Below, piece by piece: positions 40,998 through 46,469 of a stretch of 58,112 bases of DNA. The stretch spans positions 1 to 58,112 of the forward strand of contig VMGD01000009.1 in assembly GCA_007376405.1 (NCBI GenBank). The letters are read 5' to 3'. Numbering within the stretch: the first letter of the stretch is position 1; each line of letters begins with the position of its first letter. Under the pieces are notes generated by a model, which had not been told where the DNA came from, searched no databases, and saw only the letters and a list, made by a program, of their open reading frames with translations. The position numbers were made by a program, and so were the translations under genes. This stretch comes from Microgenomates group bacterium Gr01-1014_7. GTDB taxonomy: Bacteria > Patescibacteriota > Microgenomatia > Daviesbacterales > UBA10151.

Positions 40998-41685
40998 ATA
41001 CCTCTATCACTTCTTTTTCTGCTTCTGTTAAATCTTTAACAGTATCCACACCTCTCCAGTAATCAGTGCTTTTAAAAACCAGGAACCTGTCTGAGGGCAA
41101 TTTAGGGAAAGTTTCTATTTCATGATCTCCGACGTTTGGCAAAAGGGGTTCTATTTCTCTGGAAAAAACATATATTCCGGCATTAATCCAGTGAGGCAGA
41201 ATTGGTTTTTCCTTAAATCCCAAAATCTCATCAGCGCCGTTAAATTCCACAATTCCATAAGGGCTGCGCAGTGGCACCACCACAATAGTTGCCATAGCCT
41301 CGCTTTCTTCGTGTTTTTTAATCAAGCCTTCTATATCCAGTTTCCAAAGATTATCTCCGTTTGTAATAAGAACATTTTCCCAATCATTTGGCAGTATTTG
41401 CATTGCTTTTTTAATCCCTCCCCCACGTCCAAGGGGAGTTTCTTCAACAGAAAATAAGGCTCTAATTCCATACTTTTTCCCTGAATCAAGATGTTTTTGC
41501 AAAGCTTCTCTTTTGTAACTTGTGGCAAAAACAACTGTTTCAATACCCGCATTTTTAAGCTGATCCAGCTGGTAAGCCAAAATCGGCCTGCCGCCAACCT
41601 CCACCATTGGCTTGGGCCGGTCATTAGTATATGGTCGCAGCCTCTCCCCTTTCCCGCCTGCCAAAATTATCGCGGATTTAACCAT
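40987..41685 (-). CDS. sugar-phosphate nucleotidyltransferase (NTP_transferase family)
   Basis: AIILAGGKGERLRPYTNDRPKPMVEVGGRPIL. Confidence 0.85.
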   Translation of the reverse strand: MVKSAIILAGGKGERLRPYTNDRPKPMVEVGGRPILAYQLDQLKNAGIETVVFATSYKREALQKHLDSGKKYGIRALFSVEETPLGRGGGIKKAMQILPNDWENVLITNGDNLWKLDIEGLIKKHEESEAMATIVVVPLRSPYGIVEFNGADEILGFKEKPILPHWINAGIYVFSREIEPLLPNVGDHEIETFPKLPSDRFLVFKSTDYWRGVDTVKDLTEAEKEVIEVFSG

Positions 41686-41715
41686 GCAAATAATCTTACC
41701 ACTCTCATAGGGAAT

Positions 41716-41743
41716 TTGACAAATAGAATTTTTATGATATACT
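41716..41743 (+). promoter_or_regulatory. sigma70-like promoter with extended -10 (TTGACA-16-TGaTATACT)
   Basis: TTGACA at 41716-41721, TG at 41735-41736, TATACT at 41738-41743. Confidence 0.6.
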
Positions 41744-41749
41744 AATAAT

Positions 41750-42012
41750 TACAACTAAATATTTAAAGGCGTTTTACTGGAGTCACGATCCAGGAGCCGA
41801 GAGCCAAAATGCTCTACGGAATGATCTAAGCCGTAAAAAGATAGACAGACGATGTTGGAAAACCAAAGTCGCCACTAAGAGTCATGTATCAGAACGGTAC
41901 ACGGAAAACAGGATGGGACCGCGGGAGCGGTCTTTTTATTTTTAAAAAGACACCTCTCGTTCCTTGTTCATTAGCCTTTATGGGTTAGTGATCAGCGAAC
42001 GGGAGGTTTTTT
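41750..42012 (+). promoter_or_regulatory. T-box riboswitch-like leader, predicted tRNA-His specificity
   Basis: AGGAUGGGACCGCG (41910-41923) matches the T-box sequence at 13/14 positions. Antiterminator: AGGA/UCCU, 7-nt bulge UGGGACC, GCGGGAG/CUCUCGU. Competing 10-bp helix 41953-41962/41997-42006 plus U6 sequesters GGGAGG. Hairpin 41777-41795 displays CAC. Confidence 0.7.
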
Positions 42013-42028
42013 GTTGGAAAGGAAAGTT

Positions 42029-42841
42029 ATGAAAACAAACGATAAAAAAACAGAATATGAATTCACAATCCTCCGTCCCGGAGGAAATGATCAAATGCTT
42101 ATACAGGGGCTTGTTCCAAAAAATAAAAAACGCTTGATTAATGATGAAATGATTAAGCGTTTTCCAAATGTGGAGCAGGTTAGTTTCTATGCATTTGATC
42201 GAAAAAATAACTTTGCTACTTTGGAACTTGCCGGAGGTGAATTTTGTGGAAATGCCACCAGATCACTCGCCTACTTACTTTTAAATGGCAACAAAGGAAA
42301 AATAAAAATTAAAGTTTCTGGTACAAAAAGAGTTTTAAATGCTGGAATAAATCAAAAAAATACTGCATTTGCCCAAATGCCAATTTCTAATCTGAAATCT
42401 TTTACAAAACTCAAAAGTAATTTATTCAGAGTAGATCTAGAAGGTATTACCCAATTGGTTTTTGTACAAACTAGACAGATTAATCCTAGTAATCTCAAGC
42501 GTTATGCTCTTAAACTCCTACAACAAGAAAATCTAATTTACTCAGTTCCAGCTGCCGGGGTAATGTTCATTACCGATTGGGGTGAATATATTGAACTTAA
42601 ACCTATTGTCTGGGTTAGAGATATTGAAACACTACTTTACGAGACAGCTTGTGCTAGCGGAACAGCTGCTGTAGGAATTTGGAAAGCAACCCAAAGTAAA
42701 GCAACCTCTACACAAGTTAAAATTTTGCAACCTTCCCTCAAAATTATCACTGCTGAGATTTATAAAGATAGCGATGACTTAGTGGATGTGTATATAGATG
42801 GAGATATAGAAATCCTGGAAAAAGGAAGTGTGGGATTATGA
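42029..42841 (+). CDS. DapF-fold two-cysteine PLP-independent racemase/epimerase-like protein
   Basis: LRPGGNDQMLI, AGGEFCGNATRS (first Cys) and YETACASGTAAVG (second Cys). The alternative TTG start is 42011. Confidence 0.7.
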   Translation: MKTNDKKTEYEFTILRPGGNDQMLIQGLVPKNKKRLINDEMIKRFPNVEQVSFYAFDRKNNFATLELAGGEFCGNATRSLAYLLLNGNKGKIKIKVSGTKRVLNAGINQKNTAFAQMPISNLKSFTKLKSNLFRVDLEGITQLVFVQTRQINPSNLKRYALKLLQQENLIYSVPAAGVMFITDWGEYIELKPIVWVRDIETLLYETACASGTAAVGIWKATQSKATSTQVKILQPSLKIITAEIYKDSDDLVDVYIDGDIEILEKGSVGL

Positions 42842-43653
42842 ATGAGTTAGTTGAATTAACTTTATATAATCTTGAACAACTTGAGCAAACTGGTAGACCT
42901 TTACCAGCTAGAGAAGAACTAAAGAGTAGATTAATCGAACTTGCAGAAAGTAGATCGGTTCCTGTAGTTGTATTTAATTGCTTAAATCCTGATTGGAGAC
43001 CGGGTTCAAAACGGGATTATCCAAAAGCAGCATTCTCTTTTAATCCTGAAACTTCAATCTGCAGATATTATCAAGATTATGTAGCGATCACTTTGCTCGC
43101 ACTTCAAGACCTGGGAACTCCAAATCTAAATATTGTTATACCGGATAGTGAACTACTGGATGAAAGGGTTTTTTCTTTCGCTCAATCCAAAGAAGAAAGA
43201 ATAGATACAAGTCTAAGTGCAAAATCAGCATTATCCTCTGTTCTGACAGAATTAGATAATCCGGAGCAAGCAGTAACTCTTTGGAGTGAATATTGTGCAG
43301 GGCAATCACTCAAAACTCCCTTTGAATATACAACTGAAAACTATCGTAGGATCCAGTCGGATCCTGGACTGCAGAAAAAAGTACAAGATCAAATAAAAGA
43401 TTCCGCAAGATTTTTTGATAAAAAAGGTGTTAATTTTAAAAAAATTGATCCAAGGGTAATTTATGAACGGATTGCCTGGTATGAGGCAATGTATATGGGT
43501 GAAGGTCAGGCTCTTTTGGAATCTGGGGCTATTGTATTAAACTTTGAAGATAGTCGAATTGCCGCCTGGTTTCAACGAGGAGCAGATAGCAAATTACCAA
43601 TATTAACCCCTGTCAATGCTAATGATTTTTACGCCTGGAGAAGAAAAAGTTAA
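42838..43653 (+). CDS. hypothetical protein (271 aa), translationally coupled to the racemase-like gene
   Basis: ATGA overlap. No recognisable motif. Confidence 0.7.
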   Translation: MNELVELTLYNLEQLEQTGRPLPAREELKSRLIELAESRSVPVVVFNCLNPDWRPGSKRDYPKAAFSFNPETSICRYYQDYVAITLLALQDLGTPNLNIVIPDSELLDERVFSFAQSKEERIDTSLSAKSALSSVLTELDNPEQAVTLWSEYCAGQSLKTPFEYTTENYRRIQSDPGLQKKVQDQIKDSARFFDKKGVNFKKIDPRVIYERIAWYEAMYMGEGQALLESGAIVLNFEDSRIAAWFQRGADSKLPILTPVNANDFYAWRRKS

Positions 43654-43670
43654 GGGTTTGGTGATATGAT

Positions 43671-44267
43671 ATGACTATGATTAAAGTACCGCCAATACCA
43701 AAAAAGAGAATAGCAATTTTTATAGATGCTGCTAATTTTGAGATCAGCCTGAAGCAATGTGGTCTGAGGGTAGATTATAAAAAACTTTTAACTGAATTCC
43801 GAACTAAAGGAAAATTAACCATATTAAGATATTACAGTCCTGTCTTTAAGACTAAGGGACAGAATCGCTTTTTCTCCTTTATAAAAAATCAGGGCTTTAA
43901 AATAGTCACTAAAAGTATTAAGGTTATTAGGAAACGCAATAAAAAATCTCAAAACAAAGCTAATTTTGATGTTGAGATAACCTTTGATGCGGCTGTCAAT
44001 ATAGGCAAATATGAAACTATGATACTTTTTTCAGGAGATTCCGATTTTGTTTACTTAGTATCTCAGCTGAAAAAAAGTAGCATTACTACTACAGTAATCT
44101 CGCCTCAGTGGCGGACAGCCAGAGAGCTTAAAAAAGTTGCCGATACATTTATTGATTTACGGGAATGTGATTTTGTCATTAAAAAGCCCCCTTTCGGGGG
44201 CGCTCACAACAGCCTTTCGACTGCAAAAGCAATATACAACAAAAAAGGAGAAAAGTCAAGTGATTAA
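43671..44267 (+). CDS. NYN-domain (LabA-like) protein
   Basis: KRIAIFIDAANFEISL...NFDVEITFDA...MILFSGDSDFVYLV. Confidence 0.75.
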   Translation: MTMIKVPPIPKKRIAIFIDAANFEISLKQCGLRVDYKKLLTEFRTKGKLTILRYYSPVFKTKGQNRFFSFIKNQGFKIVTKSIKVIRKRNKKSQNKANFDVEITFDAAVNIGKYETMILFSGDSDFVYLVSQLKKSSITTTVISPQWRTARELKKVADTFIDLRECDFVIKKPPFGGAHNSLSTAKAIYNKKGEKSSD

Positions 44268-45165
44268 AGCACCGCCAACACCAAAGGGGTTTAGGGATAT
44301 AAAGCCTGAACTTGCCGCAAAAAGACGTGAAACAATAAATAAAATTGCCGGCGTCTTGGAAGAATATGGTTTTATTCCAATTGAAACTCCCACCATTGAG
44401 TTTGCCGAAACACTGGAAGGAAAATATGGAGAAGAAGAAAGGCTGATTTATAAATTCACAGATCGAGGTGGCAGGAATCTTGCTTTGCGTTTTGATTTAA
44501 CAGTTCCTCTTGCCAGATATGTGGCAACTTACAATCCTCCCCTACCTTTCAGGCGTTACCAAGTAGGCCAGGTTTTTAGAGGAGAAAATCCGCAAAAAGG
44601 CAGGTGGAGAGAATTTACTCAATTTGATTTTGACAGTGTTGGATCTAGTAATCCGTCGGAGGATGCAAAAGTTGTAGCTGTTGCCATAAAGTGCATGAGG
44701 AAGCTTGGGTTCTCAAATGCTCAAATGTCTGTTAATGACAGAGCTAATTTTGCAGATTTCCCCTCGGAGATTGTTAGAGCTATAGATAAGCTTAATAAAA
44801 TTGGTGAAGAGGCAGTTTTGCAAGAGCTTGTGAGCAATGGTTTATCCCAGCAGGTAGCCAAGGAGTCTGTTTCTAAAATCAGATCACAAAAACCAACTTC
44901 AAATCTTAAAGATTTGTTTAAGATTCTAAAGGAAGAATATAAATTAGAAGAAGGCAAAGATTTTGCTTTTGATCCTAGCTTAGCAAGAGGTTTGGATTAT
45001 TACACAGGAGCTATTTTTGAACTAAAAGAGGAGAAATATCAAGGTTTATCCATTGGTGGCGGGGGCAGGTATGACAATTTAATTGGAAGTTTTGCCAAAA
45101 AAGATATTCCTGCAGTTGGATTCTCCTTTGGATTGGACAGGATGCTGGAAATCCTCTATCCTTAA
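44260..45165 (+). CDS. hisS: histidyl-tRNA synthetase catalytic core without anticodon-binding domain (HisRS/HisZ-like)
   Basis: LRFDLTVPLARY, FRRYQVGQVFRGENPQKGRWREFTQFDFD (motif 2), GGGGRYDNLIG...GFSFGLDRM (motif 3). GTG start lies 9 nt after AGGAG. The protein ends right after motif 3. Confidence 0.75.
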   Translation: MIKAPPTPKGFRDIKPELAAKRRETINKIAGVLEEYGFIPIETPTIEFAETLEGKYGEEERLIYKFTDRGGRNLALRFDLTVPLARYVATYNPPLPFRRYQVGQVFRGENPQKGRWREFTQFDFDSVGSSNPSEDAKVVAVAIKCMRKLGFSNAQMSVNDRANFADFPSEIVRAIDKLNKIGEEAVLQELVSNGLSQQVAKESVSKIRSQKPTSNLKDLFKILKEEYKLEEGKDFAFDPSLARGLDYYTGAIFELKEEKYQGLSIGGGGRYDNLIGSFAKKDIPAVGFSFGLDRMLEILYP

Positions 45166-45168
45166 AGG

Positions 45169-46107
45169 ATGAGCTCTCAAATAATCACCAAACCACTCCC
45201 TTACATTGCTTTAATACTGGCCCATTTAATTTGGGGTATAAATTTTGTGGTGGCTAAAGTTACTTTGCAGGAATTCCCACCCATGAGTCTGGCACTTTTG
45301 CGTTTTGCTCTTGCTTCCCTTTTTTTGGCCCCATTTTTTTTCGCTCAAACCAAAAAAATTAAAATAGACAAAAAAGATTTACCCGCCCTTATTGCAGTTG
45401 GTGTTTTTATTATCACTTTAAATATTGCCTTTTTCTTTGAAGGCATAAAGCGGACCACAGCCATAGACGCCTCGGTTTTAACCCTGATTATTCCCATTCT
45501 TTCGGTCATCATAGGCTGGTTATATTTCAAGGAAAAAATATACCTGGTTAATCTGGCGGGCGTTGCGGCAGCCTTTTTAGGAGCGCTGATTATCATTGGC
45601 CTGCCTCAATTTTTTACGGGTACATATTCTACCCAAATGCTTTTGGGTAATATTTTAATAATTCTGGCCTCAATTTCCTGGGTAATAGGGGCAGTTATAT
45701 CCAAAAAAGTCCTCACCAAATATCCCTCACTGGTAGTTACTGCCATTGCCTTTATGGTGGGAACTGTGGCCATGCTTGTTCCGGCAGGCCTTGAGTACAT
45801 AAAAAACCCATCCTGGCCCGGCCAAATTACTATTTTGGGTCTAATGGGTCTAACCTATATGACTCTTCTCTCCTCCATCTCCGCTTATTTTCTGTTTGAA
45901 TGGGGCCTTTCCAAAACCACCATCACCGCAGCTGATTTATTCCAGTATATTGAGCCCTTTATTGCAGCTTTCCTGGCAGTAACCATACTGGGTGAGCAAC
46001 TTTCCACTTCCTTTTTAACCGGAGCCTTTTTAATTACCATTGGAGTATTTTTAGGAACCCTGGCCAAAGCCATCCACCGCAGACACCACAAAGCGCACAG
46101 AGTGTAG
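45169..46107 (+). CDS. EamA/DMT family transporter
   Basis: 10 TM helices with an EamA duplication. Confidence 0.8.
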   Translation: MSSQIITKPLPYIALILAHLIWGINFVVAKVTLQEFPPMSLALLRFALASLFLAPFFFAQTKKIKIDKKDLPALIAVGVFIITLNIAFFFEGIKRTTAIDASVLTLIIPILSVIIGWLYFKEKIYLVNLAGVAAAFLGALIIIGLPQFFTGTYSTQMLLGNILIILASISWVIGAVISKKVLTKYPSLVVTAIAFMVGTVAMLVPAGLEYIKNPSWPGQITILGLMGLTYMTLLSSISAYFLFEWGLSKTTITAADLFQYIEPFIAAFLAVTILGEQLSTSFLTGAFLITIGVFLGTLAKAIHRRHHKAHRV

Positions 46108-46142
46108 AAATTCTGTAGCCAATTTGTTATACTACCTGCATT

Positions 46143-46469
46143 ATGAAAGCAGACATCCATCCTAATTGGAATCCTGAGGCTAAAGTGACTTGCGCCTGCG
46201 GGGCCAGCTTTATAACCGGCTCAACGATGAGCGAAATCCGTGTGGAAATTTGTTCTGCCTGTCACCCGTTTTTTACCGGAGCGCAAAAGTTTGTTGATAC
46301 CCTTGGCCAAGTAGACAGATTTGTTAAGAAAGTGGAAGTTTCCAAAGCTAGTCAAGAGGAAAGAAAAAGAATTCTGGAACACAAAAAGGCAAAGCTGGAG
46401 GAGCGCAAAAAGGAAAGACCCTCCCTCAAAGATCTCCTGATGCAGGCCAGAAAACAGGCTGCATCTTAG
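46143..46469 (+). CDS. rpmE: 50S ribosomal protein L31 with Lys-rich C-terminal extension
   Basis: MKADIHPNW...CACG...[13 protein letters not shown]. Confidence 0.9.

Follow-up and report, generated by a model that had tools for sequence, protein, structure and literature searches.

Can a histidyl-tRNA synthetase (HisRS) serve a cell as its housekeeping enzyme when it consists of the catalytic core and nothing else? HisRS is the textbook example of a synthetase that finds its main identity signal, G-1:C73, in the acceptor stem of its tRNA, and to our knowledge every characterised housekeeping HisRS retains an anticodon-binding domain (ABD). The question is raised by a 301-aa hisS gene on a 58,112-nt stretch of DNA, the whole of which was analysed and is called the window here. 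It is part of contig C13 of the genome (G000) of a tiny-genome groundwater bacterium belonging to Daviesbacteria, which comprises 1,089,733 bp in 26 contigs and has a completeness rating of 100%. From the evidence set out below, we think it likely that this gene encodes the one working HisRS of the organism, that the ABD was deleted from it, and that it would select tRNA-His via the acceptor end while leaving the anticodon unread.

Results

A HisRS that ends after motif 3

The gene in question is the following:

44260..45165, + strand, hisS, catalytic core only (301 aa; motifs 1-3 and insertion domain, without ABD), from Pfam, NCBIfam, relatives and models

The open reading frame (ORF) starts with a GTG at 44260, with the ribosome-binding site AAAGGAG 10 nt 5' of it, and its product runs to ...EILYP (the end of GFSFGLDRMLEILYP), directly after which comes the TAA stop at 45163-45165. 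An identical 301-aa product is already found in the public protein collection (P0001). The Pfam profile tRNA-synt_His (PF13393) is matched over positions 1-307 of 308 (1.9e-45), and a match to HGTP_anticodon (PF03129) was absent from the product in the same Pfam scan. The NCBIfam model for hisS, TIGR00442, gives 290.5 bits and passes its cut-off of 286.75 despite the missing tail, the match being confined to profile positions 2-312 of 406. The original prediction for this DNA had described a product with a HisRS-specific element and class II motifs 2 and 3 that stops right after motif 3 and is followed 4 nt later by an EamA transporter gene, and in all these respects it was accurate: the strings LRFDLTVPLARY and GFSFGLDRMLEIL are both present, the stop falls just past motif 3, in the final helix of the catalytic domain, and the ATG of eamA stands at 45169, which leaves a 3-nt spacer after the end of hisS at 45165. 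The gene product comprises the class II core, with all three motifs (1, 2 and 3) as well as the HisRS-specific histidine-binding blocks, and lacks the C-terminal HGTP-type ABD of a class IIa HisRS; we can confirm that the ORF encodes a HisRS catalytic core without an ABD.

The only HisRS of the genome

The whole of G000 contains one PF13393 match, the hisS gene at 44260-45165, and each of the 27 genomes of the family that carry the short form likewise contains one, including G005, which is a single contig rated 99% complete. The original prediction had allowed for a full-length hisS elsewhere together with hisG, and had proposed a genome-wide look for a second hisS or a lone ABD; with PF13393, PF03129 and tblastn neither was found in G000. 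A paralog with a non-canonical role, its other suggestion, is unsupported for a gene that is the sole HisRS homologue and sits in the hisS position.

No separate ABD was detected in G000, where the three PF03129 matches belong to ThrRS, GlyRS and ProRS. C-terminal domains from 28 full-length relatives, used as tblastn queries against this genome, recovered only the ABD of ThrRS (best E 8e-6), and the remaining matches had E values of 0.1 or worse. Nor was a stand-alone ABD found in five more short-form genomes, one of them G005, each of which has three PF03129 matches in frames of 409-573 aa. Within the reach of PF03129 and tblastn, we reject an ABD split off and encoded elsewhere for these six short-form genomes. 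The ThrRS that carries PF03129 in G000 adjoins infC and has 412 aa (L002:571-1809, G000:C9); it matches the thrS profile at positions 170-564 of 565, without the N-terminal TGS and editing domains, and is, as judged from this match, another reduced synthetase in the genome.

Orthology and spread of the short form

We compared hisS loci of 38 relatives and found the gene order hisS-eamA-rpmE-prfA-prmC to be common to short-form and full-length loci. As both forms occupy this same block, the short gene is by its position an ortholog of hisS, and as a single-copy gene in the orthologous position it would be the one that supplies His-tRNA in the cell.

A HisRS match was obtained in 39 of the 41 genomes in our close-relative sample, comprising nine short forms (frames of 298-355 aa), 28 full-length forms and two contig-edge fragments. 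All nine short forms stop within 0-4 residues of the same point, with eamA within ~50 nt. The family-wide sample of 96 species genomes (91 with a HisRS match) has 27 short members, 60 with frames of at least 392 aa, and four partial or split matches (G043, G046, G066 and G096). The 27 short members, with frames of 295-355 aa, are spread over 20 genus codes and share 66-100% identity with the query, and the identity of the 60 long members to the query is 55% or less. We also screened a collection of 5.8 billion proteins and looked at the best 120 clusters, which have 277-327 aa and 68-100% identity; PF03129 occurs in none of them, and their named members are Candidatus Daviesbacteria or Microgenomates. 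With clustering at 50%, the short clade is reduced to a single 308-aa representative, and the next matches have 390-450 aa. Near-identical proteins of this group are annotated inconsistently in databases, being named both 'HisZ' and 'HisRS'.

In a quick IQ-TREE analysis of 37 catalytic domains, for which the two contig-edge fragments L041 and L043 were dropped, the nine short forms and one full-length form (G025) make up a clade with an SH-aLRT support of 100%. The nearest relative of the short clade, G025, is thus full-length; branch lengths are ordinary, and a single change of state accounts for the distribution on the tree. As far as these sequences tell, the core-only HisRS is a lineage trait of one subclade in a Daviesbacteria family, for which one loss suffices.

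Catalytic signatures, constraint and predicted structure

An alignment with human HisRS runs residue by residue through the motif 2 block, LARGLDYYTG, GGGRYD and the motif 3 strand, and the positions invariant in 90 aligned sequences include R107, R115, R243, Y247 and the motif-3 glycines, among others. The short HisRS also retains DRGG at residues 68-71, which by alignment appears to correspond to the DRG/GlyGly pocket through which, according to the accessible part of the source, the opposite subunit makes contact with G-1 in the Thermus complex (PMC4357726). Values of dN/dS are 0.06-0.12 among pairs of short forms and 0.085-0.12 among pairs of full-length forms, both of them rough because dS is saturated, and suggest that the short hisS is kept under purifying selection. 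Adaptation of the core by charge or by insertions was considered and is not evident among the cores compared: net charge ranges from -4 to +3 in short cores as against -8 to +7 in full-length ones, and the motif-2 changes of the short clade are also present in its full-length sister.

An AlphaFold2 (AF2) model of the short HisRS has a pLDDT of 94.2 and a pTM of 0.91, and its top Foldseek matches are the HisRS structures 6nhi and 4phc (TMq 0.84-0.87), with a HisZ structure at rank 17. Prediction with two copies gave a score of 0.85 as against 0.00 for the best of three controls, a score that may reflect memory of solved HisRS dimers; because such dimers are already solved, it measures likeness to known dimers and is no proof of dimerisation. 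Among solved structures the mark for a homodimer was reached by 20 of 30 same-chain-pair proteins and by 1 of 23 single-chain proteins. At least 91% of contacts are shared between the dimer runs, the partner pLDDT is at least 87, and the predicted interface consists of motif 1 and residues 64-74, including 66-69 and 72.

The tRNA-His substrate

The tRNA-His gene of G000, at C17:35940-36014, encodes G-1, a GUG anticodon, C73 and the CCA end. Our sample of tRNA-His is partial because the BLAST query recovered the gene in just 12 of the 41 genomes, six of them short-form, five full-length and one without a HisRS match; G-1, GUG and C73 are encoded in all 12 of the genes recovered. A change in tRNA-His accompanying the loss of the ABD was looked for and none was seen among the 12 genes, the identity features being unchanged.

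A separate peculiarity of these tRNAs lies in their loops. Half of the 12 genomes have a tRNA-His with a D-loop without GG and with the T-loop AGCGUUA (AGCAUCA in G038) instead of UUCRANY; these are at L044:1507-1581 (the G000 gene given above), L045-L048 and L052. The odd D- and T-loops change together and are seen with both HisRS forms, unlinked to the short HisRS.

The operon and its T-box-like leader

Upstream and downstream of hisS we find the following features:

41716..41743, + strand, sigma-70-like promoter (TTGACA, 16 nt, TATACT), matching the consensus at 11 of 12 positions, better than any other site in 41600-46200
41750..42012, + strand, His-type T-box-like leader, from motif, alternative helices and covariation, ~2.2 kb upstream of hisS
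41777-41793, + strand, leader hairpin with the invariant loop GUCACGA, CAC at 41784-41786
41910-41927, + strand, T-box core of the leader, AGGA-UGGGACC-GCGGGAG, with UGGGACC at 41914-41920
41953-41964, + strand, 3' strand of the antiterminator, CCUCUCGU-UCCU
41953-41962 / 41997-42006, + strand, terminator (10 bp), with a U-run at 42007-42012
42029..42841, + strand, histidine racemase-like gene (HisR/CntK-like), first in the operon, NCBIfam HisR 86.4 and CntK 85.8 bits
42838..43653, + strand, 271-aa protein with no family match in Pfam or NCBIfam
43671..44267, + strand, NYN-domain protein, Pfam NYN 3e-29, its end overlapping the hisS GTG by 8 nt
45169..46107, + strand, EamA/DMT transporter, Pfam EamA 3.7e-46, conserved downstream neighbour of hisS

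The operon order is accordingly racemase-like gene, 271-aa protein, NYN-domain gene, hisS core and eamA. The promoter at 41716-41743 is a consensus match only, and such sites are no commoner here than in shuffles.

The window contains the motif TGGNACCGCG a single time, where 0.09 occurrences would be expected, and the leader folds with a z-score of -5.2. Its UGGG is complementary to the CCCA end of tRNA-His (C73), and the glyS T-boxes of G000 carry UGGA. The core pairs AGGA with UCCU and GCGGGAG with CUCUCGU, in competition with the terminator for the strand CCUCUCGU-UCCU, such that both a UGGN bulge matching the discriminator and the alternative helices of a T-box are present. CAC, the candidate specifier, is placed by the predicted fold in an invariant hairpin loop. 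The leader is common to 10 of the 38 relatives' hisS loci, before short and full-length genes alike, and compensatory changes are found in 14 of 24 predicted leader pairs, including all four of the CAC hairpin (10 sequences). Eight relatives' leaders keep the antiterminator/terminator arrangement, with G:U to G:C swaps in two, and the terminator strand was not found by our script in leaders L038 and L040.

RF00230, the Rfam T-box model, gave no match over the window at the gathering threshold, over 41600-42150 or 43300-45400 at E<=10, or to the leader in a search of the genome. That genome search does detect two glyS T-boxes (53.6 and 37.8 bits), which are tandem sub-threshold matches with UGGA bulges upstream of glyS in L063 (G000:C3:25376-25700, minus strand). 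A T-box directly 5' of hisS is rejected, as the 600 nt upstream are the NYN-domain ORF and Rfam gave none there at E<=10. The earlier statement that the gene is under a His-type T-box therefore holds insofar as a T-box-like leader heads the operon at 41750-42012, and needs correction in that the leader is not directly upstream of hisS and is given no score by RF00230. Because of the motif, the alternative helices and the covariation, we accept the leader as a putative His-type T-box variant that RF00230 misses, and its recurrence at 10 relatives' loci suggests a variant of Candidate Phyla Radiation (CPR) bacteria that is absent from the Rfam model. Like the T-boxes of RF00230 it has a UGGN bulge, antiterminator and terminator helices that exclude each other, and CAC as a candidate specifier; it differs in that this candidate is placed at the tip of a short hairpin, whereas in the classic T-box the specifier belongs to an internal loop within a long Stem I. 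The leader may resemble the T-boxes with an 'ultrashort Stem I'.

For the racemase-like gene the HisR and CntK scores are far below the cut-offs of 400 and 300, and there is no Pfam match. We place its start at the ATG at 42029, after a GGAAAGG site; the ORF list gave the TTG at 42011. Racemase-like homologues also precede hisS in L020 and L034, and the gene could provide a step of D-/L-histidine salvage coupled to hisS. The gene for the 271-aa protein is present in two of the 96 family genomes (G000 and G056), adjoining hisS upstream in both, and G056 has a full-length HisRS. Of the 38 relatives' loci, only L019 of G017 has an NYN homologue 5' of hisS. Throughout the class, and whichever enzyme form is present, hisS is constantly followed by the gene for the EamA/DMT transporter, which is a candidate transporter of histidine or a related metabolite.

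Discussion

Alternative explanations

The short gene could encode HisZ, the regulatory subunit of the short-form ATP phosphoribosyltransferase, and be no synthetase at all. The architecture without an ABD would fit, the NCBI name 'ATP phosphoribosyltransferase regulatory subunit' is attached to the close relatives P0003, P0065 and P0073, and a HisG-like gene does exist in G000. HisZ coexists with a true HisRS and the his pathway, and this setting of a separate HisRS, a short HisG and the his pathway is not found in G000, which has no PF00977, PF00815, PF01502 or PF00475 match (HisA/F, HisD, HisI and HisB) and which would be left without any HisRS if the gene in the hisS slot were a HisZ. The hisZ model TIGR00443 reaches 184.8 with a cut-off of 271.65, whereas the hisS model passes, and the other HisZ models scored are also far under their cut-offs. 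The HisG-like protein for its part scores 62.5 bits against an NCBIfam cut-off of 75.75 and is encoded on a different contig (C14). HisG was found in four of the nine short-form genomes and in four of the 28 full-length ones, so it is not tied to the short form, and we reject a co-distribution of the two. Thus, of the HisZ-like architecture that had been proposed, the absence of the ABD stands; the HisZ identity does not, given that there is no second HisRS, no his pathway and a hisZ score under the cut-off, and we consider it very unlikely.

The observation that no hisG or other his genes are nearby is correct for the his pathway and has to be amended for hisG, since there is an orphan HisG-like gene (256 aa; L005:1432-2202, G000:C14), which adjoins lysS on contig C14 of a genome otherwise lacking his genes. 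A HisG-like gene is also found 1-2 kb 5' of hisS in G008, G017 and G020. In G015 and G022 hisG, hisA and hisF stand just upstream of a full-length hisS, with hisA/hisF between hisG and hisS, and a single HisRS-like gene adjoins hisG. As hisG, hisA and hisF are located beside hisS in these two genomes, the orphan HisG-like genes look like, and probably are, relics of a his operon formerly beside hisS.

A different possibility is that the protein is a real HisRS core that needs a non-homologous tRNA-binding protein in trans, for tRNA affinity or for stabilisation of the dimer. The core shows no visible compensating change, hisS is translationally coupled in G000 to an RNA-related gene, the NYN-domain gene, and engineered HisRSs without an ABD are poor or inactive in the accessible parts of two studies (PMC4357726; PMC7590224). 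None of the six short-form genomes searched yielded a lone HGTP_anticodon domain, though, and the two operon neighbours do not qualify as a general partner: the NYN-domain gene is adjacent to hisS in just two short-form loci, those of G000 and G017, and of the 96 genomes only two encode the 271-aa protein, one of them having a full-length HisRS. We regard such a helper as improbable. In a related scenario the ABD would have been replaced and not lost, either in a split synthetase with an unrelated tRNA-binding partner, or with the core serving in addition as a partner of the orphan HisG-like protein in histidine sensing, and to this we give little credence. Finally, an ORF that breaks off within the final catalytic-domain helix might be a truncated pseudogene or the result of an assembly error or frameshift. 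The end point recurs across 27 species genomes and the best 120 clusters of the protein collection, dN/dS is ~0.1, and eamA begins 4 nt past the stop, leaving no space for a shifted ABD; in all nine short loci the gap between hisS and eamA is under ~50 nt. A frameshift restoring a C-terminal domain, which the original prediction had envisaged, has no room before eamA and is at odds with the conserved end point, and there is next to no chance that the gene is a pseudogene or an artefact.

A probable minimal HisRS and weak points of this reading

We therefore return to a minimal HisRS relying on G-1/C73, as the original prediction had already considered, which is favoured by the sole copy, the hisS position, the intact motifs and the encoded G-1 and C73. 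In the course of events that we suggest, the ABD (~100 codons) would have been cleanly deleted from an ancestral hisS in one Daviesbacteria subclade, with the class II catalytic core and the insertion domain remaining. The core is predicted to form the usual motif-1 homodimer and would activate histidine to histidyl-adenylate; tRNA-His would then be chosen by its genome-encoded G-1:C73, by the CCA end and by the DRGG pocket of the other subunit, and the anticodon would not be read. Expression of hisS would be driven from the histidine-specific T-box-like leader at the head of the racemase-unknown-NYN-hisS-eamA operon. Architecture, single copy, orthology, conservation and tRNA features are directly visible in the genomes; activity, dimerisation and sufficiency without a helper are what we infer.

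In the accessible part of PMC4357726 the anticodon is stated to contribute weakly to HisRS recognition, and the catalytic domain of E. coli HisRS alone is given ~0.6% of the aminoacylation efficiency (PMC4357726). By analogy, published work renders acceptor-end-only charging plausible but not comfortable, and several points weigh against our reading. The same part of that source puts the engineered E. coli core at ~170-fold less efficient than the full enzyme (PMC4357726), and a second source, as far as its text is accessible, reports that alpha-proteobacterial HisRS chimeras without an ABD are inactive in vivo and ascribes to the ABD a part in dimerisation and in the discrimination of acceptor stems (PMC7590224). 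In our own data, no compensating insertion or charge gain is evident in the short-clade cores when alignments are compared, solved HisRS dimers retained by the model may account for the dimer prediction, the branch that joins the short forms alone has a support of only 57, and a divergent helper may lie beyond the sight of PF03129 and tblastn. Either a modest efficiency would be enough for slow-growing cells, or there is a subtle adaptation of the core, or a helper has escaped our view.

Relation to known systems

The short form shares with canonical class IIa HisRS of the eukaryote/archaeal-like subtype (6NHI from Elizabethkingia; human HARS, 4PHC/4G84) the catalytic fold, motifs 1-3 and the insertion domain, the LR(F/Y)DLTVP, LARGLDYYTG and GGGRYD blocks, the predicted motif-1 dimer and the hisS slot. 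The canonical enzyme has in addition a C-terminal HGTP ABD and a linker, and the short HisRS is without both. HisZ (PDB 3OD1, 1Z7M), which activates short HisG, likewise has a HisRS-like core in which an ABD plays no functional role, but HisZ structures rank below HisRS for the short form (phmmer 1e-26 and 1e-15 vs 1e-53). The same domain content, a core without an ABD, is found in Ncat HisRS, an engineered catalytic fragment of the E. coli enzyme that reportedly goes back to Augustine and Francklyn in 1997. Ncat is a laboratory construct with an efficiency of ~0.6% according to the accessible part of PMC4357726, whereas the short HisRS is natural, conserved and the only HisRS of its lineage. 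Natural loss of an ABD with acceptor-stem identity is described, in the accessible part of PMC5389517, for CysRS* of Desulfobacterales, an extra copy for a special tRNA (PMC5389517). The loss is common to both cases; in the present one it has affected the housekeeping enzyme, whose tRNA is canonical. We found no description of a natural housekeeping HisRS without an ABD in the full-text literature, a coverage that leaves subscription-only papers outside, and the core-only HisRS appears to be a natural form of a known enzyme for which no published description was found.

Implications

The mixed use of the names 'HisZ' and 'HisRS' for near-identical proteins is a practical annotation problem, and a His T-box variant that is invisible to Rfam points to a gap in the RF00230 model for CPR bacteria. 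If the HisRS described here does ignore the anticodon, it would be a scaffold for orthogonal or suppressor tRNA pairs. A lineage that lives on a core-only HisRS would amount to a natural experiment on the minimum that is needed of a class IIa synthetase; it would bear on what the ABD contributes, be it affinity, dimer stability or fidelity, and on how far tRNA identity can shrink in tiny genomes.

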